From positions 11,849-75,848 of the forward strand of contig CAZCFB010000007.1 in assembly GCA_964497805.1 (NCBI GenBank): 64,000 bases of DNA, read 5' to 3'. Positions 3,001 through 24,926 of this stretch are shown piece by piece. Positions within the stretch are counted from its first letter, which is position 1. The number at the start of each line of letters is the position of its first letter. Origin of the DNA: an uncultured Kofleriaceae bacterium. GTDB lineage: Bacteria; Myxococcota_A; Polyangia; GCA-2747355; CAZCFB01. Made by a program: the position numbers and the translations under genes. A model generated the notes under the pieces. It was not told the origin of the DNA, searched no databases, and saw only the letters and a list, made by a program, of their open reading frames with translations.

Positions 3001-4520
3001 CATTTTTGACCAAGGCGCGCACCAACCAGCCGACCCGCGATCCTCTCTTCCTGGATCAGCTGGCCCAGGCTTACCTGGAGTCTTACCAGATGGGCGAGGC
3101 CGAGCGCGTGATCCAGGAGTCCCGCGATCTGCTGCCCGGCCGCCCCCACCCTCACTTCCACCTGGCCCGGGTCTACCTGCTGCAAGGGAGGAGCGCCCGC
3201 TCCCTGGCCAGCCTGAACCGGGCCCGAGGCCTCACCTCTCCGGCCGCCGCCCTGCTCAGGGCGCGCATCCTGTACAGCCTGGGCCGGCACCAGGAGGCCC
3301 TCGCCGAGCTGGACGGCCAGAAGGGCAACCTGCGGGCGAGCCTGGTCCGGGCCGAGATCCTGGCGAGCATGGGCAAGGGGCGCGAGGCCGAACAGGGCCT
3401 GCTCGGCCTGCTCCCGACCAACCGGCGCAGCGTGGAGCTGCTCACCGCGCTCGGGGAGGTTTACCTGCAGATCGGGCGCACCCACCAGGCCCGCCAGCGC
3501 CTGGGGGAGGCGGTCCGCCTGGATCGCTTCGCCTTCCGGGCGCGGCTCAAGCTGGCCGAGGTGGACCTGGCCGAGGGCAAGTACAGCGACGCCCACAAGC
3601 GACTGGCAGAGGCGGCCCGGACCAACAAGGGCAACACCGTCGCCATGCGCAAGCTGGCCGACCTGGAGTTCGTGCTCGGCAACCTGCCCAAGGCCCGGGA
3701 GCTGTACACAACCCTGGTCAAGCGCTCGGCCAATGATCCTGAGGTGCGCCTGGGTTATGCCCGGGTGCTCGCCGCCCAGCAGGAAACCTCCCTCGCTGAT
3801 GTGGAGATCCGGGCCGCGGAGGCGCGCCAGGCCGACCGGATCAAGACGGCGCTTGTTCGAGGAGAGTTCGCCCTGCTCCAGGGCAAGGCGGGGCTCGCCA
3901 TCACCCACCTGACCACGGCCACCGGGGGGACCAAGCCGTCGGCTGAAGCCCTGCATCTGCGCGTGCGCGCCCACCTGATGAACAACGACGAGCACAGCGC
4001 CAAGGCCGCGGTGCAGCGCCTCGCCAGCCTGTACGCCGGCACCCCGGAGGCCCTGGACGCGGCCGGCCGGGTGGACCTGTACGCCGGAAGCTTCTCCAGG
4101 GCTTCGCGCACCTTCGGCCAGGCGCTCCAGGCGCTCCGTACGGCGCCGAGGCCGCCGCTCATGCACGCGGCGATGCTGGTCATGGCGGGGCGCGCCCAGC
4201 ATGATAGCGGGCGCTCGGATCGCGCCATGGCGCGGTACGAGGAGGCGGCCCGCATCTGCCCGCGGTGCGCAGAGCCCCACTACCGCATCGGCCTGGTCCA
4301 CGACGAGAACGAGCGCCAGGACGCCGCCATCTCCAGCCTGCGCCGGGCCAAGAGCCTGGCCCCGAAGATGAAGGAGGTCTACTACGACCTGGGCAGCGTG
4401 CTTGAGCGCGCAAGCCGCATCTCCGAGGCAGCCGCGGCCTACCGGACCTACCTGAGCCTCAAGCCGCCCAAGGAGCTGGCCGACGCGGCGAAAGAGGCGT
4501 TGGAGAACCTGGGGCAATAG
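15..4520 (+). CDS. Large single-pass membrane protein with an acidic repeat-rich N-terminal region and a C-terminal TPR-like solenoid; 5' end may lie outside the window
   Basis: Longest ORF in this region. The frame stays open back to base 3, so the true start may be upstream of the window. The N-terminal ~650 aa are very acidic and Pro-rich, with repeated 'EPTVA(R/H/Q)GPEPLG(P/A)LD' units. A Lys/Pro-rich stretch and one TM helix 'LPVLVVCTIGVIVLAFGIG' follow. The last ~750 aa are Ala/Leu/Arg-rich TPR-like repeats. Overlapping antisense ORFs have junk-like composition. Confidence 0.75.
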   Translation: MLTGEPTPSGDALGAGEPEEGGTQELLDGEILEMGPDEDEDPTVAGELVDISVEEEQGELDLIDDDETGVGVDQELLLASMEQAAKAPPRVQQHADDDSSALLVDSGLLTEWTRAEGDGLEPQASGEEGTTDTTAADEPPTMAEEAPGTEESELLLEQSEQPWGEAVDDLEDTGFEDEEDEWDDEATVAHGPEPLGALDSTEEVVGSEWEEDPGEPTVAQINPVVDSDEASAEEEWGDIDDEGDPTVARGPEPLGPLDEEDDGEPTVARGPEPLGPLDEDDDGDPTVARGPEPLGPLDEEDPGEPTMAQASPISDQMDGVAPEGAWADEDDEGEPTVIREDSALVPAGPFGDGAGDEFEPLDSEELSEISLEMVIDEDDLPPLPPPSGVEVDDNNPEEGWGDPAEVPAFEGEEEYTSGDDPFTFDDDDEEEYAEATQVRVELPKLQAIVSDVDAASPRSLLPGGEDGVSLNPDGSLDDDDMQEEATGFYREENAQVAFPEVEDAPSPNLAEPGEGASIPEAYGEPGLQGAPTPVGVEGFPGDAAPYGEPPASPEQSMFPPGADQAPPPQHLPDDPYDPSLPPSRQFEHLPEEPYDISQPGQPEQPAAPQYPPAQSVPPEMAQASTVDIPSGPMRVERTENLRASTPGPSVSRAPAPAPGAPAEVYDARAGAEARVKAPEPKPRAKPKPKPTKRTLPRLMGGNARLDRAARTGTNLVAMLKGRPGSKRLPVLVVCTIGVIVLAFGIGRVVRHMRLGDQIEDKRGKAAQLLWNGNMVDYAAASRSYAEILKHRPEDKAAYWAQSRVQAAIPVEFGDPNPQAARRVAQTDKPGADRLAADIYAALFTGSLARANKLLEQGRVARPEAAILAYLEGRVRMLEGKAEAALASLDRAVKTNPLDTLHHLWRAEALAELGKVQKSLNAHAGTLKLNADHVGTLIARARVLLESRGDMNTAQKDLETILSGARSALSSKGQRGWAAVLMARILLTRGDSTRARTFLTKARTNQPTRDPLFLDQLAQAYLESYQMGEAERVIQESRDLLPGRPHPHFHLARVYLLQGRSARSLASLNRARGLTSPAAALLRARILYSLGRHQEALAELDGQKGNLRASLVRAEILASMGKGREAEQGLLGLLPTNRRSVELLTALGEVYLQIGRTHQARQRLGEAVRLDRFAFRARLKLAEVDLAEGKYSDAHKRLAEAARTNKGNTVAMRKLADLEFVLGNLPKARELYTTLVKRSANDPEVRLGYARVLAAQQETSLADVEIRAAEARQADRIKTALVRGEFALLQGKAGLAITHLTTATGGTKPSAEALHLRVRAHLMNNDEHSAKAAVQRLASLYAGTPEALDAAGRVDLYAGSFSRASRTFGQALQALRTAPRPPLMHAAMLVMAGRAQHDSGRSDRAMARYEEAARICPRCAEPHYRIGLVHDENERQDAAISSLRRAKSLAPKMKEVYYDLGSVLERASRISEAAAAYRTYLSLKPPKELADAAKEALENLGQ
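741..941 (+). repeat. In-frame 60-bp tandem repeat, three full units plus a partial fourth
   Basis: Units at 741-800, 801-860 and 861-920 are near-identical ('ggggatcccacggtggcccgtggtccggag...'). Each encodes 'G(D/E)PTVARGPEPLGPLDE(E/D)D..'. A partial unit 'ggcgagcccaccatggcccag' follows, and degenerate copies lie upstream (~565-680) and downstream (~1005-1035). Confidence 0.9.
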
Positions 4521-4522
4521 CG

Positions 4523-4543
4523 AACGTCGACGTCGACGTTTTT
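4523..4543 (+). terminator. Candidate rho-independent terminator (perfect 18-nt palindrome followed by a T-run)
   Basis: 'AACGTCGACGTCGACGTT' (4523-4540) is perfectly self-complementary and runs into TTTTT (4539-4543). It starts 3 nt after the TAG of the + strand TPR gene, at a convergent junction with the GH57 gene. A U-tract is present only for the + strand transcript. Confidence 0.4.
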
Positions 4544-6723
4544 CAGATCTTGAAGCTCTCCCCCACTTCGTACCCATCCACCGGCACCTTCACCTCGATG
4601 AAGCCGCTGGACGGCACCGTGCCCACCTGTTGGCCTTCGCGGGTGAACTGCACCGAGAGGCCCACCTGCTGTCCCGGGATCAGGGCGAGCCTGGACAGGG
4701 GGACCGACAGCTCGATCACCTCACCCACAACCACCTCCTGGACGCGCCCAAGCTCCACCTCGGCGCCGTCGGGCGGACCGTGAGTGAGCGCCAGGTGGGG
4801 CTGCTCGCCCGTGACCAGGCGGCAGTTGACCCGTCGCCCGCTCTCCGTGATCTGCAGGTTGACCTGCACCTCCCCGGTCAGGGGAGAGAGGTGCGGTGGG
4901 AGGCTGTCCGCGGGCACCAGGCGGATGTAGAGGCGCCCCGGATCAAAGCCCCAGTACAGGCCTGAGAGGATGGAAGGGTAGGGGGCCAGGGAGCCGGCCG
5001 GGGGGACCCTGTGGTAGCCGGCGCCGCGCCACTCGAAGTAGGAGGCCAGGCTCCCGTCCATGCGCGGGTGCACAAGGTCCGTTGGCTGGCGGGAAGGCGC
5101 CACCGCGCCGCCCTGGGTCAGGGGGCGGAACAGCTCCGCCGGGGGCGTGTCGCCCAGGGCCCTGTAGGCGGCGGCCAGGTGGGCGCGGAAGAGGGCCTCA
5201 TACAGGTCATCCTCCTCGCTGTGGTACGGCTCACCGAGCCACCAGAACCAGTCGGCTCCCTCGGCGTCGAGCAGGTGCTCCAGGGCCTCCGCGCGCTGCT
5301 CCGCGCTTGTCTCCCCCGAGCGTTCCGCCCTGGCCAGCCGCTCCCGCGCGTGGCCCAACAGATCCCAGGCGCGGTTCTTGAGCGCCTCGCCGATCCAGGT
5401 GGCGAAGTTGCCGTCCACCCAGGATCCGGAGTGCAGGTGGTCCAGGGCCACGGCGGGCGGGTGCCGATCAAGCCACTGGCCGAGGGTGGTGGTCACGACG
5501 TCGCCCCCGCGCTCCAGCCGCCCGAAGAGGGCGCCCAGGAACCCGGTCATCGGCTCGGCGTAGCGCTCCCACACGCGCTCCAGCGGCAGCGCCACCACCA
5601 CCAGCGGCGGCGCGTCGCCGTCCACCCGGGCCCCCGCGGCGGCCTGCCGCACCTGCTGGAGGAAGTCGTCCGCCGCGGCGCCCGAGTCCTCCCAGGCGGT
5701 GTACTCCTGCTCCACCCGCCGGGACAGCTCCTCGTGGCGGAAGAAGAGGGCGCTCCCCCCGTGGCGGTACGGCTGGAAAAGGCGGCGGCGCCCCGGCGAT
5801 GAGCCCCGCTCATCCAGGGAGTGGAACAGCACGGACGCATCGCTCACCAGGTAACCGAAGCCCTGCTCTCCGGCCAGGCGCACGCTCTCCGGGCTAACGG
5901 CCAGCTCCGGCGGCCAGAGCCCGCGCGGCTCCCAGCCCACCTCCTTGACGAAGGTGGCGCGGGCACGCTCCATCTGCTCCGCGGCGTCTCCGGGGTTGGC
6001 GAAGCGTCTGGGCAGGCGGGCGTCAGGCGTGGGCCGCCGCGCCGTGTGGCTGTCCACCAGCAGGGGCAGGATCGGGTAGCGGTGGGGGCACGGGATCCAC
6101 TCCACCGATCCCCGGCGGCCCAGGGCCGTCCAGGCCGGCACCAGCCCCTCCAGAAGCTCCCGCTGCCGCCCTATGACCACCTCCTTGTCGGCCTCCTCGA
6201 AGTCGCGCCCCCTGACCAGCAGCGCCTCCACCCGAGGATCCTCGGCCGCGGTGGGCCCGAACCAGGCCAGGTTGAACAGCACCTGCAGGTCGCGCAGCTC
6301 GTCCACGCTCAGGTCCGCCGCACCCCAGGCACCCCCCGCGCCCTGGTGCCCTCGCTTCTCCAACAGCTCACGGTAGCGCGGCATGGGGTGCAGCCGCGCC
6401 TGCCTGTGCACCGAGAAGAAGTAGCGCGCCAGCATGCCCCGCTCCTCGGGGGTCAGCTCCTCGGCGGGGATCCGGGTGAGGGCCAGGCCGGTGTCCTCCA
6501 CCCCTTCCCGGAGCAGACGGATCTGCTCCAGCAGCGGGGGCGAGAGCACGGCGGTCACGTTCACGCCGGGGTGGCGCTCCAGCAGGCTGGCGAAGTCACG
6601 GTAGGTGCCCGCCGCGTGCAGGCGCACCCAGGGGAGGGTGAGGCTGCCGCTGTCGGGCGAGAGGCTCCACGGCTGGTGGAGGCGCCAGACAAAGGCGAGG
6701 TGGATGGGACGGCTAATACTCAC
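4543..6723 (-). CDS. Glycoside hydrolase family 57 protein (alpha-amylase / alpha-glucan-processing type)
   Basis: Motifs typical of GH57: N-terminal 'HLAFVWRLHQPW', 'GSVEWIPCPHRYPILPLLVDS' and 'WPPELAVSPESVRLAGEQGFGYLVSD'. GTG start. The stop of the upstream kinase gene is only 9 nt away. Confidence 0.8.
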   Translation of the reverse strand: MSISRPIHLAFVWRLHQPWSLSPDSGSLTLPWVRLHAAGTYRDFASLLERHPGVNVTAVLSPPLLEQIRLLREGVEDTGLALTRIPAEELTPEERGMLARYFFSVHRQARLHPMPRYRELLEKRGHQGAGGAWGAADLSVDELRDLQVLFNLAWFGPTAAEDPRVEALLVRGRDFEEADKEVVIGRQRELLEGLVPAWTALGRRGSVEWIPCPHRYPILPLLVDSHTARRPTPDARLPRRFANPGDAAEQMERARATFVKEVGWEPRGLWPPELAVSPESVRLAGEQGFGYLVSDASVLFHSLDERGSSPGRRRLFQPYRHGGSALFFRHEELSRRVEQEYTAWEDSGAAADDFLQQVRQAAAGARVDGDAPPLVVVALPLERVWERYAEPMTGFLGALFGRLERGGDVVTTTLGQWLDRHPPAVALDHLHSGSWVDGNFATWIGEALKNRAWDLLGHARERLARAERSGETSAEQRAEALEHLLDAEGADWFWWLGEPYHSEEDDLYEALFRAHLAAAYRALGDTPPAELFRPLTQGGAVAPSRQPTDLVHPRMDGSLASYFEWRGAGYHRVPPAGSLAPYPSILSGLYWGFDPGRLYIRLVPADSLPPHLSPLTGEVQVNLQITESGRRVNCRLVTGEQPHLALTHGPPDGAEVELGRVQEVVVGEVIELSVPLSRLALIPGQQVGLSVQFTREGQQVGTVPSSGFIEVKVPVDGYEVGESFKI

Positions 6724-20654: not shown

Positions 20655-21773
20655 TCAGCGACGGGAGAGCTGCTCCAGGATCTTCCGGTTGGCCCTGGGC
20701 ATGGGGACCTCGGACAGCTCGCCGGGATCCACCCACTTGCGGGGGTGCCCTTCACCTGCCCTGGGATCCATCTGCTCCAGGCGGCAGGTGTGAGGGTGGA
20801 GCGTTACCTTGAAGTGTGTATAGGCGTGGTTCACTGGCTCCATTGCCTTGATCCGATCCACGCGCAGGCCCTGCTCCTCACGCAGCTCGCGCCGAAGGGC
20901 CTGGAGGATGCTCTCCCCGGGCTCCACCTTGCCGCCCGGGAACTCCCACAGCCCTCCCAGGAGGCCGTCGTATGGCCTGCGTTGGATCAGGATCCTGCCC
21001 CGGTCATCAGTGACCAGGCCGACAGCCACCTGGTGGTGTGGGACGGCCCGACGGGGAGCACGGCGCGGATACGCCTCGGGATCCCCGCCCTCCAGGGCCG
21101 CGCACGCATCGGCCAGGGGGCACCCGCCGCACGCAGGCTTGCGAGGTGTGCAGACCAGGGCCCCCAGCTCCATCACTGCCTGGTTGTGGAGCCGGGCCGT
21201 GCCCTCGGGGAGCAGGTCCTGGGCCAGGTTCGCCACCGTCCGGGCGGCGGCGCCCGCGGCGGGCGGCTGCTCCAGGGCGATGAGCCGGGCCAGCACCCGC
21301 CGTACGTTGCCGTCCACCACGGCCAGGTCATGGCCGAAGGCGAGGCTCTGCACCGCGGCCATGGTGTAAGGGCCCACCCCGGCCAGGGCGGCGAAGGCTC
21401 CCGGGGCGTTGGGTACCTCTCCCCCGTGGAGGCGCATCACCTGGCCGGCGGCGCGGTGCAGGTTGCGGGCCCTTGAGTAGTACCCCAGCCCCTCCCACAG
21501 GCGAAGCACCTGCTCCAGATCCGCGGCGGCCAGCGTCTTCACGGTGGGGAAGGCCTCGAGCCAGCGCTGGTAATACGGGATGACCGTGGCGACCTGGGTC
21601 TGCTGCAGCATCACCTCCGAAACCCAGATTTCGTACGGATTCGTGGTGCGGCGCCAGGGCAGGTCCCGGGCTGTCTCCAGGTACCAGGCGTGCAGGGCCG
21701 GGATCGCCGATTGGGCCACCGCCAGCTCCTGTGGAGATGGCGTGATCAGGCGCTGGAGGTCAGAGCTCTTCAT
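20655..21773 (-). CDS. mutY: A/G-specific adenine DNA glycosylase MutY
   Basis: 'YEIWVSEVMLQQTQVATV', HhH 'LAGVGPYTMAAV', 4Fe-4S 'CTPRKPACGGCPLADAC', and a C-terminal NUDIX-like 'LGGLWEFPGGKVEPGE'. Confidence 0.9.
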   Translation of the reverse strand: MKSSDLQRLITPSPQELAVAQSAIPALHAWYLETARDLPWRRTTNPYEIWVSEVMLQQTQVATVIPYYQRWLEAFPTVKTLAAADLEQVLRLWEGLGYYSRARNLHRAAGQVMRLHGGEVPNAPGAFAALAGVGPYTMAAVQSLAFGHDLAVVDGNVRRVLARLIALEQPPAAGAAARTVANLAQDLLPEGTARLHNQAVMELGALVCTPRKPACGGCPLADACAALEGGDPEAYPRRAPRRAVPHHQVAVGLVTDDRGRILIQRRPYDGLLGGLWEFPGGKVEPGESILQALRRELREEQGLRVDRIKAMEPVNHAYTHFKVTLHPHTCRLEQMDPRAGEGHPRKWVDPGELSEVPMPRANRKILEQLSRR

Positions 21774-21914
21774 GGCGTATTGTTATGGACACGTTGCCGC
21801 TGAAGGAAGCATGATGAACGCTATGATTATTCAGGTGTGCGGCTACGATAGATTGTTCAAAATGAGGTCGGCGCCCTGGGCGCTGTTATTCGAGTCTTTA
21901 CCGGAGGAGAAGGG

Positions 21915-22565
21915 ATGACCCCAATAAGGAAGGCAACAGTCAGCCTGGCTCTGTTGACGCTGTTGGCATCGCCGACGGAGGTCAGCGCGCAACCGAAAGA
22001 CAAGGCGGGCAAGAAGGCCGCGGCGGCCAAGAAGGCGCCCGCAAAAAAGGCTGGCAAGGAAGCCAAGAAGGCGGGCAAGGAAGCCAAGAAGGCGGCCAAG
22101 GATGAGGCCAAGGCGGACAAGGCGGCGGCCAAGGATGAGGCCAAGGCGGACAAGGCGGCGGCCAAGGATGAGGCCAAGGGAGCCAAGCCGGCGGCCAAGG
22201 ATGAGGTGGTCCATGTCCATGTCCACCCAAAGAACATCTCCGACAAGAAGAAAGCAGACGGCAGGCACAAGATGCTGGCGCCGAAGATGGATAGCCTCAT
22301 CGCCGCCCGGCGGGAAACCCGGGACGTACGCCAGAAGGCTGCGGTCAAGGCGCTCACGGACAAGTACGGCGTCAAGGTCAGGCGCCCGGCCGTTCACAAG
22401 GAGCTCCGCAAGATTGCCTGGCTTGAGGCCCGGCTGGAGCGGATAAGAGAGATCTATGTGTTGGCGGAGGAAAAGTGGCTGGTCAAAGAGGTCGACAAGG
22501 CGGCCAGGACCCTTGCCGAGGTCAAGGCAATGAGGCTCAAGGCTGTCATTGGAGGTAAGAAATGA
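21915..22565 (+). CDS. Secreted Lys/Ala-repeat protein with a conserved basic C-terminal domain (cassette 1, gene A)
   Basis: Signal peptide 'VSLALLTLLASPTEVSA', 'AKKAGKEAKK' and 'AAKDEAKADKA' repeats, then 'KKKADGRHKML...ARLERIREI...EEKW'. Paralog of 23030-23683. Confidence 0.7.
   Translation: MTPIRKATVSLALLTLLASPTEVSAQPKDKAGKKAAAAKKAPAKKAGKEAKKAGKEAKKAAKDEAKADKAAAKDEAKADKAAAKDEAKGAKPAAKDEVVHVHVHPKNISDKKKADGRHKMLAPKMDSLIAARRETRDVRQKAAVKALTDKYGVKVRRPAVHKELRKIAWLEARLERIREIYVLAEEKWLVKEVDKAARTLAEVKAMRLKAVIGGKK
22092..22207 (+). repeat. In-frame 33-bp tandem repeat (3.5 units)
   Basis: 'gcggccaaggatgaggccaaggcggacaaggcg' at 22092-22124 and 22125-22157, a variant at 22158-22190, and a partial unit to 22207. 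It encodes 'AAKDEAKADKA'. A 21-bp 'ggcaaggaagccaagaaggcg' doublet lies just upstream. Confidence 0.9.
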
Positions 22566-22984
22566 ACCGCGCCCTGATTGTTGTCCTGGCCCTCCTGCTG
22601 GCGTTCTTTGGCCATGCAGGATGCAAGAACAAGAAGAAGACCGGCGAGGCCGCCAGCAAGACGGGCGTAGCTCACGCTGCCCCGGCCAAGGCGAAGGCCA
22701 AGCCGGAAGCAAAGGCCGCGGCCGCTGATGAGCCAGATGAAACTGAGGCCGGCGACCCGGAGGAGGCCACGGGCAAAGTGACCAAGGAGGCCACGCCAAC
22801 CGGGGCGTACGCCGCATCTTGCCAGAAGGAGCCCGAGACCAAGGACCACGCCGAAGATATCCCCACGTCCGTGGACTTCGAGGAGGAGGCGGCGGCGAAG
22901 ATCACCGCCCTCAACGTGGACGCCGAGTTGAAGCTCTTCATGGCCCATATCTATGATCTGAAATACCCAAACAAGAAGAAATAG
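22562..22984 (+). CDS. Lipoprotein with an acidic C-terminal domain (cassette 1, gene B)
   Basis: Lipobox 'FFGHAGC'. ATGA overlap with gene A. C-terminal 'TGAYAASCQKEPETKDH...VDFEEEAAAKITALNVDAELK' is paralogous to 23683-24090. Confidence 0.65.
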   Translation: MNRALIVVLALLLAFFGHAGCKNKKKTGEAASKTGVAHAAPAKAKAKPEAKAAAADEPDETEAGDPEEATGKVTKEATPTGAYAASCQKEPETKDHAEDIPTSVDFEEEAAAKITALNVDAELKLFMAHIYDLKYPNKKK

Positions 22985-23029
22985 CCGCCCTGAGGCGCTG
23001 ACGAGAGAGCTCAACGGGAGGAGGACAGG

Positions 23030-23683
23030 ATGAATATCTACATCAAGGCAACGGCCTGCCTGGCGCTTGTGGTGTTGTTGGCATTGCCAGCGGTGGCCTC
23101 GGCGCAGCCGGCAGACAAGCCCGCGGCGAAGAAGGCTGGCAAGGCCAAGAAGGTGCCGGCCGCCAAGAAGGCGCCGGCTGCCAAGAAGGCGCCAGCCGCC
23201 AAGAAGGCGCCAGCCGCCAAGAAGGCGCCAGCCGCCAAGGAGCCCGCGGCCAAGGAGCCGGCAACCAAGGAGCCGGCAACCAAGGAGGCTGCCGGTGGGA
23301 AGAAGGTCGATAAGACCAACCCGGCCCAGACTGGCAGCCACAAGAACCCCAAGTTAATTTCAGCGAAGAAGAAGGCTAACGGCCGGCACAAGATGATCAA
23401 GCAGAAGATGAATGACCTGCTCCTGGAAAAGCGGGCGACCCGCGAAGAGCGGCGGGGGAAGGTCCTCGACGTGCTGGAGAAGAAGTACGGCAAAAAGCTC
23501 CTGGTCCCGGCCGTACGTAAGGCCATGCGGAAGTTTTCCTGGAGGAGGGCGCGCCTGGAGAGGATCAGGGATATCGCCACCCTGTCCGAGGAGAAGTGGG
23601 CGCTGAAGATCGTGAACAGGCTCACCGGGGAGTTGGACAAACTGGAGACAAAGGCCCTCGCCGAACTCACAGGAGTCAAGTGA
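23030..23683 (+). CDS. Secreted Lys/Ala/Pro-repeat protein with a conserved basic C-terminal domain (cassette 2, gene A)
   Basis: Signal peptide 'CLALVVLLALPAVASA', four 'AAKKAP' units and four '(A/T)KEP' units, then 'KKKANGRHKMI...ARLERIRDI...EEKW'. This aligns with 21915-22565 along its whole length. Confidence 0.7.
   Translation: MNIYIKATACLALVVLLALPAVASAQPADKPAAKKAGKAKKVPAAKKAPAAKKAPAAKKAPAAKKAPAAKEPAAKEPATKEPATKEAAGGKKVDKTNPAQTGSHKNPKLISAKKKANGRHKMIKQKMNDLLLEKRATREERRGKVLDVLEKKYGKKLLVPAVRKAMRKFSWRRARLERIRDIATLSEEKWALKIVNRLTGELDKLETKALAELTGVK
23159..23290 (+). repeat. In-frame 18-bp (x4) then 15-bp (x4) tandem repeats
   Basis: 'gccgccaagaaggcgcc(g/a)' units at 23159, 23177, 23195 and 23213. 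These are followed by 15-bp 'gc(n)(g/a)ccaaggagcc(n)' units from 23231 to 23290. Confidence 0.9.
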
Positions 23684-24090
23684 TGAAACGCGATCAGATA
23701 CTGTTCTTCACCCTCCTGGTTTTTCTGTTCTGCCCCGCCGGGTGCAAGGGCAAGGGGAAGACCAAGCCGGCGGACTCCAAGGCAACCGTGGTCTCAAAGG
23801 CGGCTGCCACCGGAACGGCAAAAGAGGCGGCCGTTGCCGAGGACGACGAGGAGGACGACGCGCCTTTCGTGAAGGGCAAGGAGGAGAAGCTAACCGGCGT
23901 GTACGCCGCTGCTACCAAGCGCGAGCCAGAAACCAAGGACGATCCCAGCAGGACCCCCACCTTCCTGGACTTTGAGGAGGAAGCGGCCGCCAAGATCACC
24001 GCCCTCAACTTTGGCGAGGAGTTAAAGGCCATCGAGGAGCTACTCGAGGACATGGATGACGAAGACACGGAGGATGTGGAGGAGGACTGA
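23683..24090 (+). CDS. Lipoprotein with an acidic C-terminal domain (cassette 2, gene B)
   Basis: The internal ATG at 23683 (TGATG overlap with gene A) gives 'MKRDQILFFTLLVFLFCPAGC' with a lipobox. 'TGVYAAATKREPETKDD...LDFEEEAAAKITALNFGEELK' matches cassette 1 gene B. It ends in 'EDMDDEDTEDVEED'. Confidence 0.65.
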   Translation: MKRDQILFFTLLVFLFCPAGCKGKGKTKPADSKATVVSKAAATGTAKEAAVAEDDEEDDAPFVKGKEEKLTGVYAAATKREPETKDDPSRTPTFLDFEEEAAAKITALNFGEELKAIEELLEDMDDEDTEDVEED

Positions 24091-24107
24091 GCCGCCCAGG
24101 CTCCCCA

Positions 24108-24926
24108 TCATGCCAGGCGGTAGCCCAGCCGCTCCATGGTCCCCCCGAACGCGTCCTGCAGCAGATCCAGGCACTGCCTGTCCAGGTGATCTCGCCACTC
24201 GTCGGGCTTCCCCTTTCGTACAAACAGGATCCCCAGGTCTTTGCCCTTGAGCCCCGGGTCGGCCTCGGCCGTGCGCCCGCGATCAAGCCGCTGCATGCGC
24301 TCGAAGCTGCTCGCCTGGATGGCCGCGGTGAGGGCCTCGTCGTCGTCGGGTAGATCCAGGGCTCGGGCAGCCCGGCGCGCGCCCGGCAATGGGTCCGCGC
24401 GCATCTCCTCGTAGCCCAGCACCGCCACCCCCGGGTTGTCCCGTTCCGCGGCCAGCCAACCCTCCACATGGGCGTCCCATGTGCCATAACTGTCCAGCTC
24501 CCCGCGCAGGAAGCGGGGTAGGTAGGCCGCCACCGGCTCGTCGGGCCTTAGCCGCCGCTCGCGCTGGAGGAAGAAGTAGTAGGAGGTGGCCACGCTGCGC
24601 GGGTCACGCACCATGTACACCGCCCGCCGCACCCTCGGATCATACGGCTCGTGGCTCTTGAGGAACCTCGGTGAAGCCAGGGCGCGCAGCTCCCGCTCGC
24701 GGTTGCGGTAGATGTCCGGGATCAGCCCGTCGAGGTTGCTGAAGTCCACCTCGCCGCCGCCGTCGCGGCGCAGGAGCAGGGCGCCGAGCAAGAACCTGAG
24801 CCAGGTGTTGCCGCTCTTGGGGTAGGAGGTGATGAAGGTGTCGTCCCCGCGGATGGAGAGGGCGCCCCCCCGGGCCACCACTTTGAGGGCATCCTTCACG
24901 CGCCCGGCTATCCCCTTGCGGTCCAC
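24108..24926 (-). CDS. PAPS-dependent sulfotransferase-domain protein
   Basis: 5'-PSB loop 'YPKSGNTWLRFLL' and 3'-PB motif 'VRDPRSVATSYYFF'. GTG start with a strong SD 'GAGGAGGGAG', 9 nt after the SpoIID stop. Confidence 0.8.
   Translation of the reverse strand: MDRKGIAGRVKDALKVVARGGALSIRGDDTFITSYPKSGNTWLRFLLGALLLRRDGGGEVDFSNLDGLIPDIYRNRERELRALASPRFLKSHEPYDPRVRRAVYMVRDPRSVATSYYFFLQRERRLRPDEPVAAYLPRFLRGELDSYGTWDAHVEGWLAAERDNPGVAVLGYEEMRADPLPGARRAARALDLPDDDEALTAAIQASSFERMQRLDRGRTAEADPGLKGKDLGILFVRKGKPDEWRDHLDRQCLDLLQDAFGGTMERLGYRLA

Follow-up and report, generated by a model that had tools for sequence, protein, structure and literature searches.

TolA domain II is the periplasm-spanning helix of the Tol-Pal system, rich in Lys, Ala and Glu, and shows that exported Lys/Ala-rich spacers are not unusual. 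Alanine-zipper lipoproteins of the Lpp/OprI type (PF11839) are helical, lipid-anchored envelope elements with a proposed role as tether or spacer, and ER/K single alpha-helices (SAH) form charged spacers. In mycobacterial HBHA and the AlgP/H1-like proteins of Pseudomonas, polyanions (sulfated glycans, DNA) are bound by Lys/Ala/Pro repeats that accompany a helical or coiled-coil region, while immunity lipoproteins of the NisI/SpaI type, for bacteriocins and lantibiotics, are encoded beside a cationic exported product. Here we describe a pair of genes, designated A (exported basic protein) and B (small lipoprotein), which is present in tandem copies, A1-B1-A2-B2, on a 64,000-nt stretch of contig CAZCFB010000007.1 of assembly GCA_964497805.1 (hereafter the window; all coordinates are window positions). 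The A-B pair is a conserved, uncharacterised two-gene envelope module across Polyangia, and the window carries a lineage-specific tandem duplication of it with polycationic repeat arms. Its architecture resembles that of established envelope tethers and spacers, among them TolA domain II, Lpp-type lipoproteins and ER/K helices.

Like TolA domain II, protein A would be an exported, highly charged envelope spacer of low complexity, rich in Ala, Lys, Glu and Asp. It differs from TolA, however, in the absence of the N-terminal membrane anchor, its signal peptide having a cleavable A-x-A site, and in the absence of the C-terminal domain III, the conserved three-helix bundle of A being different and paired with a dedicated lipoprotein; no TolA model of Pfam or NCBIfam matched A. 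The module shares with Lpp/OprI-type proteins a helical, lipid-anchored design, but the lipid anchor and the helical protein are here on two polypeptides, a C-terminal Lys for linkage to peptidoglycan is not conserved, and the matches to PF11839 in the arms of two relatives, at 17.5 and 15.7 bits, stayed below the threshold of 23.1. Relatives of A, including the one encoded by a syntenic cassette of the same genus, agree with ER/K helices in a charged fraction of ~0.7 and in frequent i,i+4 pairs of opposite charge, whereas the arms in the window are Ala/Lys(/Pro) repeats with few such pairs.

All four open reading frames (ORFs) lie on the + strand and were confirmed at the positions of the initial annotation. 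A1 (21915-22565, 216 aa; recognised by its ORF, its paralogy with A2 and its homologs) begins with a signal peptide, continues with a repeat arm of Lys, Ala, Asp and Glu and ends in the conserved three-helix domain, and its stop codon overlaps the start of B1 (22562-22984, 140 aa) in the sequence ATGA. After an inter-cassette spacer of 45 nt (22985-23029), in which the Shine-Dalgarno site of A2 (GGGAGGAGGA) is located and no + strand terminator was found, the order is repeated by A2 (23030-23683, 217 aa; ORF and alignment with A1) and B2 (135 aa from the ATG at 23683 to 24090), this time with the overlap TGATG. Shine-Dalgarno sites of the GGAGG type precede all four starts. The gene overlaps and the tandem duplication of a two-gene cassette, both proposed in the initial annotation, are thereby seen in the DNA and in pairwise alignments: the C-terminal parts of A1 and A2 are 43% identical over 136 aa (E 1e-28), and B1 and B2 are 51% identical over 106 aa (E 5e-21).

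The N termini of A1 and A2 include a Lys/Arg n-region and a hydrophobic core of ~12 residues, and pattern-based prediction places the cleavage after residue 25, giving Sec signal peptides of 25 aa at 21915-21989 (A1, cleavage between VSA and Q) and 23030-23104 (A2, between ASA and Q). An equivalent signal-peptide-like N terminus with an A-x-A site was identified, by the same kind of pattern, in every full-length A relative at 25 inspected loci, whatever the composition of the arm. The mature proteins are strongly basic (net +28 and pI 10.2 for A1; net +35 and pI 10.6 for A2), and in both of them the arm and the domain each contribute basic charge. The conserved basic domain occupies 22215-22562 in A1 (116 aa, net +17) and 23330-23680 in A2 (117 aa, net +20), and both copies carry the family signature PAV+xEL+xxAWxxARLxRI. 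In the alignment the near-invariant residues are the arginines R36, R39, R73 and R76, together with a Gly and the ARL core. The AF2 model of the A1 domain, built from a 24-sequence alignment, reached a pLDDT of 90.8 and a pTM of 0.74, and its four helical segments (10-34, 36-56, 58-83 and 87-112) fold into an antiparallel three-helix bundle. The domain has a net charge of +8 to +27 in members that lack extra N-terminal domains, and of 0 to +2 in two members that have them. Taking model and alignments together, the conserved C-terminal ~110 aa of A are predicted to be a strongly basic antiparallel three-helix bundle, and the N-terminal part a freely replaceable passenger.

In its Lys/Ala(/Pro) repeat composition A resembles H1-like proteins, a likeness with no database match behind it, and the initial annotation had named ordinary cytoplasmic H1-like proteins as the alternative to export. 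On that account A would be a histone-H1/AlgP-like DNA-binding protein, the N terminus of which merely mimics a signal peptide. It is hardly credible: signal-peptide-like N termini with A-x-A sites are found in all full-length relatives, the obligate partner is a lipoprotein, and neither A1 nor A2 gave a match at or near the curated cutoffs to the H1, Hc1 or AlgP families of Pfam and NCBIfam. The layout of HBHA and AlgP is similar to that of A, but there is no detectable homology, and A differs from them in that its repeats precede the helical domain, it carries a Sec signal peptide and its partner is a lipoprotein.

Both B proteins have a lipobox, HAGC in B1 and PAGC in B2, with Cys21 as the predicted site of lipidation; this Cys is invariant in an alignment of 18 sequences and is present in every B detected at the 25 inspected loci. 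The signal peptides on A and the lipoboxes on B that had been noted initially recur, as patterns, in every relative examined, and this family-wide conservation upholds the proposed location in the envelope. The net charge of mature B ranges from -4 to -23 among the inspected family members, with -4 for B1 and -18 for B2. The claim of an acidic tail on both lipoproteins holds for B2 (24028-24087, EELLEDMDDEDTEDVEED) and fails for B1, which ends basic (...YPNKKK), yet its last 85 residues have a net charge of -11. The conserved C-terminal region lies at 22799-22933 in B1 (TGxYAA...EPETKD...PTxxDFEEEAxxKITxLNxxxEL, from alignments), and the corresponding motif at 23893-24027 in B2. Its helical part reads P-T-x-x-D-F-E-E-E-A-x-x-K-I-T-x-x-N-x-x-x-E-L, in which F, E, E and N are invariant across the 18 sequences and D nearly so. 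The predicted features of B are those of a small lipoprotein whose linker is long and disordered and whose conserved C-terminal helix motif is acidic. One homolog of 153 aa (P0009) carries a Cys-rich tail (CKTCPVPCDSCSKCPKRW) in place of an acidic one.

The residue at position +2 of mature B is Lys in both copies (C-K-N-K in B1, C-K-G-K in B2) and in all B proteins of the window clade. In Myxococcus xanthus, Lys at +2 is the mark of inner-membrane lipoproteins (PMC3222651). Because all B proteins of the window clade share this mark, the A-B complex in this clade would be sited at the inner membrane and face the periplasm, on the assumption that the M. xanthus rule transfers to Polyangia.

A is variable in the segment that joins the signal peptide to the bundle. 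Analysis with Tandem Repeats Finder (TRF) located the A1 repeat arm at 22047-22206, composed of a 21-bp unit (x2.7, 22047-22102) and a 33-bp unit (x4.4, AAKDEAKADKA, 22062-22206), and the A2 repeat arm at 23144-23287, composed of an 18-bp unit (x5.3, AAKKAP, 23144-23239) and a 15-bp unit (x3.5, AAKEP/ATKEP, 23235-23287). The arrays are in frame and differ between the two copies. The window arms carry +0.15 to +0.19 net charge per residue, the higher value being that of the Pro-rich A2 arm, and i,i+4 salt-bridge pairs are scarce in them (0.04-0.05 per residue). The A1 arm, rich in Ala, Lys, Asp and Glu, is probably helical; the A2 arm is probably extended and unlikely to be helical, because Pro appears at about every sixth residue. 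Repeats of Lys, Ala, Pro and Glu are the rule within the window clade, and other members have ER/K, His-rich or Pro-rich arms; His/Lys/Asp arms also precede the A domain in some of them. The net charge of the arm varies from -4 to +18 among relatives. Members of the Kofleriaceae type (L062, L063, L065) are exported proteins of 500-750 aa in which the A domain forms the C-terminal end, with a B lipoprotein gene directly after the A gene; ahead of the A domain they contain two to six Trp-rich repeats (GFVWVxGHWDWKxGKWDWVPGHWERERAGKxWRPG) as well as an IPT/TIG-like segment. A polycationic arm of Lys and Ala thus belongs to the lineage and does not define the family. The initial proposal of an envelope polycation with an anionic lipoprotein partner needs revision to this extent: a basic A domain and an acidic B are found family-wide, whereas the polycationic arm is limited to the lineage, with ER/K in its place at the same locus of a relative.

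His-rich arms, observed in three relatives (L016, P0015 and P0022), raise the question of whether the pair could bind or buffer metal in the periplasm, the variable arm binding the ions and B delivering or anchoring the arm. A1 itself contains VHVHVHP, and its relatives HVHP, directly before the domain, and one relative gave a weak match to SMBP (PF16785) that was below threshold (16 bits against a cutoff of 29). However, His is absent from the window arms, only a minority of members have His-rich arms, conservation of the HxHP motif does not extend beyond the window clade, and no metal-transport genes were seen nearby. A function in metal binding is very improbable.

The distribution of the pair was examined with two profiles. 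The A profile (A5) consists of seven sequences, A1 and A2 among them, and is biased towards the window; the B profile consists of 18 sequences, and its matches were counted when the C-terminal motif was covered in full. A1 and A2 match A5 with E values of 1e-48 and 3e-47, which are partly circular given that both are members, and independent relatives match down to 1e-31. Across the phylum 25 of 401 sampled genomes were matched by the A profile, 22 of these matches being in the class of the window; within the class Polyangia 45 of 401 sampled genomes were matched by A and 56 by B. In this set of 401 Polyangia genomes, the A and B genes were found linked, in agreement with the pairing originally suggested: a B match lies directly downstream on the same strand for 46 of the 49 A matches. 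As to the other three, one A is located at a contig end, and the B motif next to another was under the cutoff of that search. Where a B match seems to stand without an A gene, the cause is largely that the A profile, being biased towards the window, is not sensitive enough; at two such places (G335 and G350:C110) the phylum-wide profile search gave a weak A match directly upstream. Of the B genes at the 25 inspected loci, 12 start within a 4-nt and four within a 1-nt overlap with the A stop; the others start 2-17 nt away. A and B are not in the same reading frame in any pair.

Such a pair might also be co-expressed while its products act independently, A as a soluble periplasmic chaperone or stress buffer similar to Spy, CpxP or Skp, and B as an unrelated lipoprotein. 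Periplasmic holdases are, like A, basic, all-helical and exported, with flexible charged regions, and the A-B complex is itself putative. Against independent action, A showed no similarity to Skp, or to Spy and CpxP with their LTxxQ motifs, in sequence (Pfam) or in fold (Foldseek against the Protein Data Bank (PDB), nothing below E = 4), and near-obligate adjacency with overlapping codons, across families and orders, is hard to explain unless the two proteins share a function. We regard independent action as unlikely.

Searches of curated families support the initial statement that no family was recognisable. With A1, B1, A2 and B2 as queries, Pfam, NCBIfam and PADLOC gave only low-complexity or coiled-coil noise under the cutoffs, and diverse A and B relatives likewise gave noise below the cutoffs of Pfam and NCBIfam. 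Profiles built from the alignments of A and of B detected no relative among PDB sequences, the matches to LptM/YifL covering the lipoprotein signal peptide only. Foldseek searches of the PDB returned nothing below E = 4, neither with a first, poor model nor with a later, good one. The sole match among the PADLOC defence and toxin-antitoxin models, JetC (E 0.015, 11 bits), is a coiled-coil artefact. Both protein families are new to curated libraries.

At the level of single sequences the family appeared to be almost unique. When 5.8 billion proteins were searched through a word index, the A1 domain gave three matches (itself, a variant shorter by one repeat, and a relative at 65% identity), and a single-sequence search of 60 related genomes gave no match. 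This near-uniqueness was a sensitivity artefact, the profiles having found the family across Polyangia. An exhaustive search of 1.84 billion representative proteins with a narrow profile of three sequences yielded 19 clusters at E <= 1e-3, with only three below 1e-10; the Lys/Ala subtype of the window is therefore considered rare within a modest family. Host names from exact look-ups were Polyangiaceae, Kofleriaceae and "Myxococcales" metagenome-assembled genomes (MAGs), in confirmation of the assignment to Myxococcota, and the protein was always a "hypothetical protein". The automatic IMG names of some A homologs, "colicin import membrane protein" and "chromosome segregation ATPase", say no more than that the composition is of low complexity or coiled-coil-like.

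Close relatives of the cassette were found by a search based on B, and A is directly upstream of B wherever upstream DNA is present. Four loci (L007-L010) share the synteny of the window with a single cassette, in the order mutY, A, B, sulfotransferase, SpoIID, Rce1-like gene and pyruvate kinase; in L004 the A-B pair is followed by the sulfotransferase gene, and in L011 the pair is flanked by genes for a nitroreductase and an MBOAT acyltransferase. L014, from a second species, contains a B1-like fragment followed by an A2-like and a B2-like gene, so that the tandem duplication is present there too. In trees three window genes pair with their L014 counterparts, A2 at a support of 97/96, B1 at 98/98 and B2 at 97/97. 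These paralog-wise groupings indicate that the A-B unit was duplicated before the split of the two species and that both copies were kept. A six-frame search of the window's own genome (a MAG of 61% completeness) with profile hidden Markov models (HMMs) detected no A/B paralogs beyond the two copies. A more distant pair (L016), found by pattern scan in a MAG, combines an A with a His/Lys/Asp/Glu arm and a B of 80 aa, followed by two genes for sulfatase-family lipoproteins.

The repeat units differ even between orthologs. Two metagenome assemblies of sister samples (L005 and L006) show zero mismatches to the window over 10.6 and 5.9 kb, save one 33-bp unit of A1 that is missing, and the A1 variants are accordingly 205 aa (P0001) and 216 aa (P0002) long; the missing unit may reflect either true variation in length or a repeat that collapsed in assembly. 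Together with the TRF arrays, these differences agree with the independent turnover of repeat units claimed from the beginning, and the arms of A1 and A2 presumably diverged by repeat slippage after the duplication. A genome of the same genus has a single cassette at the mutY/sulfotransferase locus (L057, G001:C11:18500-27000, 3942-5047), in which the A arm is an ER/K run of 173 aa (71% charged, net +38) in place of the Lys/Ala repeats. Two more A-B cassettes are present on other contigs of that genome (L058, L059), with repeat tails of the PEDKP type.

Taking these observations together, we propose that B anchors A to the membrane through a contact between the acidic helix and the basic bundle, and that the part of A on display is a charged arm of variable kind, a polycation in the lineage of the window; we put the probability of this reading at about one half. 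What is conserved is the basic bundle, the acidic helix of the lipoprotein and the translational coupling, whereas everything N-terminal to the bundle is exchangeable, and the bundle is therefore most simply read as a docking module for B. The acidic helix of B would dock onto the basic bundle of A and so tether A, and whatever A carries, to the membrane, with the charged arm presented to the periplasm, where it would serve as spacer or polyelectrolyte; in the window lineage the arm could plausibly bind anionic envelope polymers. Binding of eDNA, EPS or polyP, as suggested initially, is speculative. The proposal is favoured by the close linkage of the two genes, by the confident fold of the bundle, by the export signals found throughout, by the duplication of A and B as a unit with both copies retained in two lineages, by the charge complement between a basic A domain with near-invariant Arg and an acidic B with invariant Glu, and by the modularity of A, the same domain being found behind Lys/Ala/Pro, ER/K or His/Lys/Asp arms or whole domains.

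Several observations weigh against the proposal. The docking of B onto A is a putative contact read from sequence features, the net charges of the A domain and of B look uncorrelated across pairs when the table is judged by eye, and the charge complement could be coincidental; B1 has a net charge of only -4. In other clades position +2 of B can be S, E, D or G, and the inner-membrane assignment cannot be extended to them. The neighbouring genes are inconsistent across the family. Furthermore, polyanion binding cannot be the core function, because the polycationic arm is not family-wide.

The genes around the cassette are envelope-related, yet they are weak hints. Upstream of A1 and divergent from it is mutY (HhH-GPD + NUDIX, 20655-21773, - strand), identified from the gene tables of L005 and L007 and found in the same layout in the same-genus genome. 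A sigma-70-like site was observed at 21786-21815 upstream of A1, and an ORF of 34 aa (MNAMIIQVCGYDRLFKMRSAPWALLFESLPEEKG), called at 21814-21918 in public assemblies, lies in the AT-richer leader between mutY and A1, its stop overlapping the ATG of A1; this ORF is probably spurious. The G+C content of the cassette region is 0.59-0.64 against ~0.70 in the flanks. It is not taken as a sign of foreign DNA, since abundant AAG codons for Lys probably account for it. Downstream, a gene for a PAPS-type sulfotransferase (24108-24926, - strand; PF00685, E 5e-31), which also adjoins the cassette in L004, L007 and G001, and then SpoIID follow in the family of the window. The stops of B2 and the sulfotransferase gene are convergent and 17 nt apart (24091-24107), and a terminator-like hairpin was looked for in this gap and not found. 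Being convergent, the sulfotransferase gene is not co-transcribed with the cassette.

In six loci of Polyangiaceae, including L016 (6174-9064), one or two genes for exported lipoproteins of the sulfatase family (PF00884) follow B on the same strand. These proteins have S-Y-T-A-K where the formylglycine motif C/S-x-P-x-R is expected, and at least one of them ends in a Lys/Asp/Ala repeat tail (KKDDAAKAKASP x2). A link of the module to sulfate esters was downgraded for three reasons: the "sulfatases" are devoid of the formylglycine motif, the sulfotransferase gene is convergent, and other clades have MBOAT or unrelated neighbours. In L015, a distant cassette from samples of the same study in which an A fragment and B are present, the adjoining convergent gene (501-1571, - strand) codes for an exported protein that resembles CHAP domains, has a linker rich in Pro and Gln and carries Cys-rich repeats at its C terminus. 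A wider form of the proposal may be put forward only tentatively. It pictures a novel sort of two-piece envelope tether, in which the acidic lipoprotein captures the basic three-helix docking domain and hangs interchangeable passengers on it, such as Lys/Ala brushes, ER/K rulers, His-rich arms or whole domains. Slippage would tune the length and charge of the arm in this lineage, and the arm would space, or bind, sulfated or anionic glycans made by the neighbouring sulfotransferase.

The gene context also bears on another explanation, the toxin-and-neutraliser idea of the initial annotation, in which A is a membrane-active polycation, released by a predator for antimicrobial action or predation, and B an immunity lipoprotein that neutralises A at the membrane of the producer. 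A gene for a GspE/PilB-like ATPase with an N-terminal hydrophobic segment was observed divergent upstream of A in five of ~20 Polyangiaceae loci (L038, L039, L041, L042 and L045), and would fit this explanation, as would the very basic A (pI 10.2-10.6) with an acidic B, the tight coupling of two genes as in bacteriocin/immunity pairs, the fast-evolving arms in a duplicated cassette, and the predatory habit of the myxobacterial hosts. Most genomes, however, have a single copy at a syntenic housekeeping locus between mutY and the sulfotransferase gene, the arms of many members are neutral or acidic, and conservation is found in the bundle and not in the cationic arm. The loci showed neither a dedicated exporter nor a gene for processing nor signs of mobile elements, and PADLOC gave no match. 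The comparison with NisI/SpaI leads in the same direction: a cationic exported product is likewise encoded beside a small lipoprotein, but there is no similarity, modification and export genes are absent, the locus is chromosomal, syntenic and single-copy, and the cationic arm is not conserved. An antimicrobial/immunity pair is quite unlikely on this evidence.

The module is present in about one in seven sampled Polyangia genomes, and has neither a curated family nor a solved relative. The myxobacteria of Polyangia are predators and natural-product producers with large genomes, and their envelope is poorly characterised; the architecture proposed for the module in this envelope combines a domain for docking with an acidic anchor lipoprotein and a passenger that can be exchanged. 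Should the docking prove false, A and B would be an ordinary lineage-restricted pair of unassigned function. If it is true, exported proteins would have in this module a compact natural tether to the membrane, and its arms would exemplify envelope polyelectrolytes that evolve by repeat turnover.

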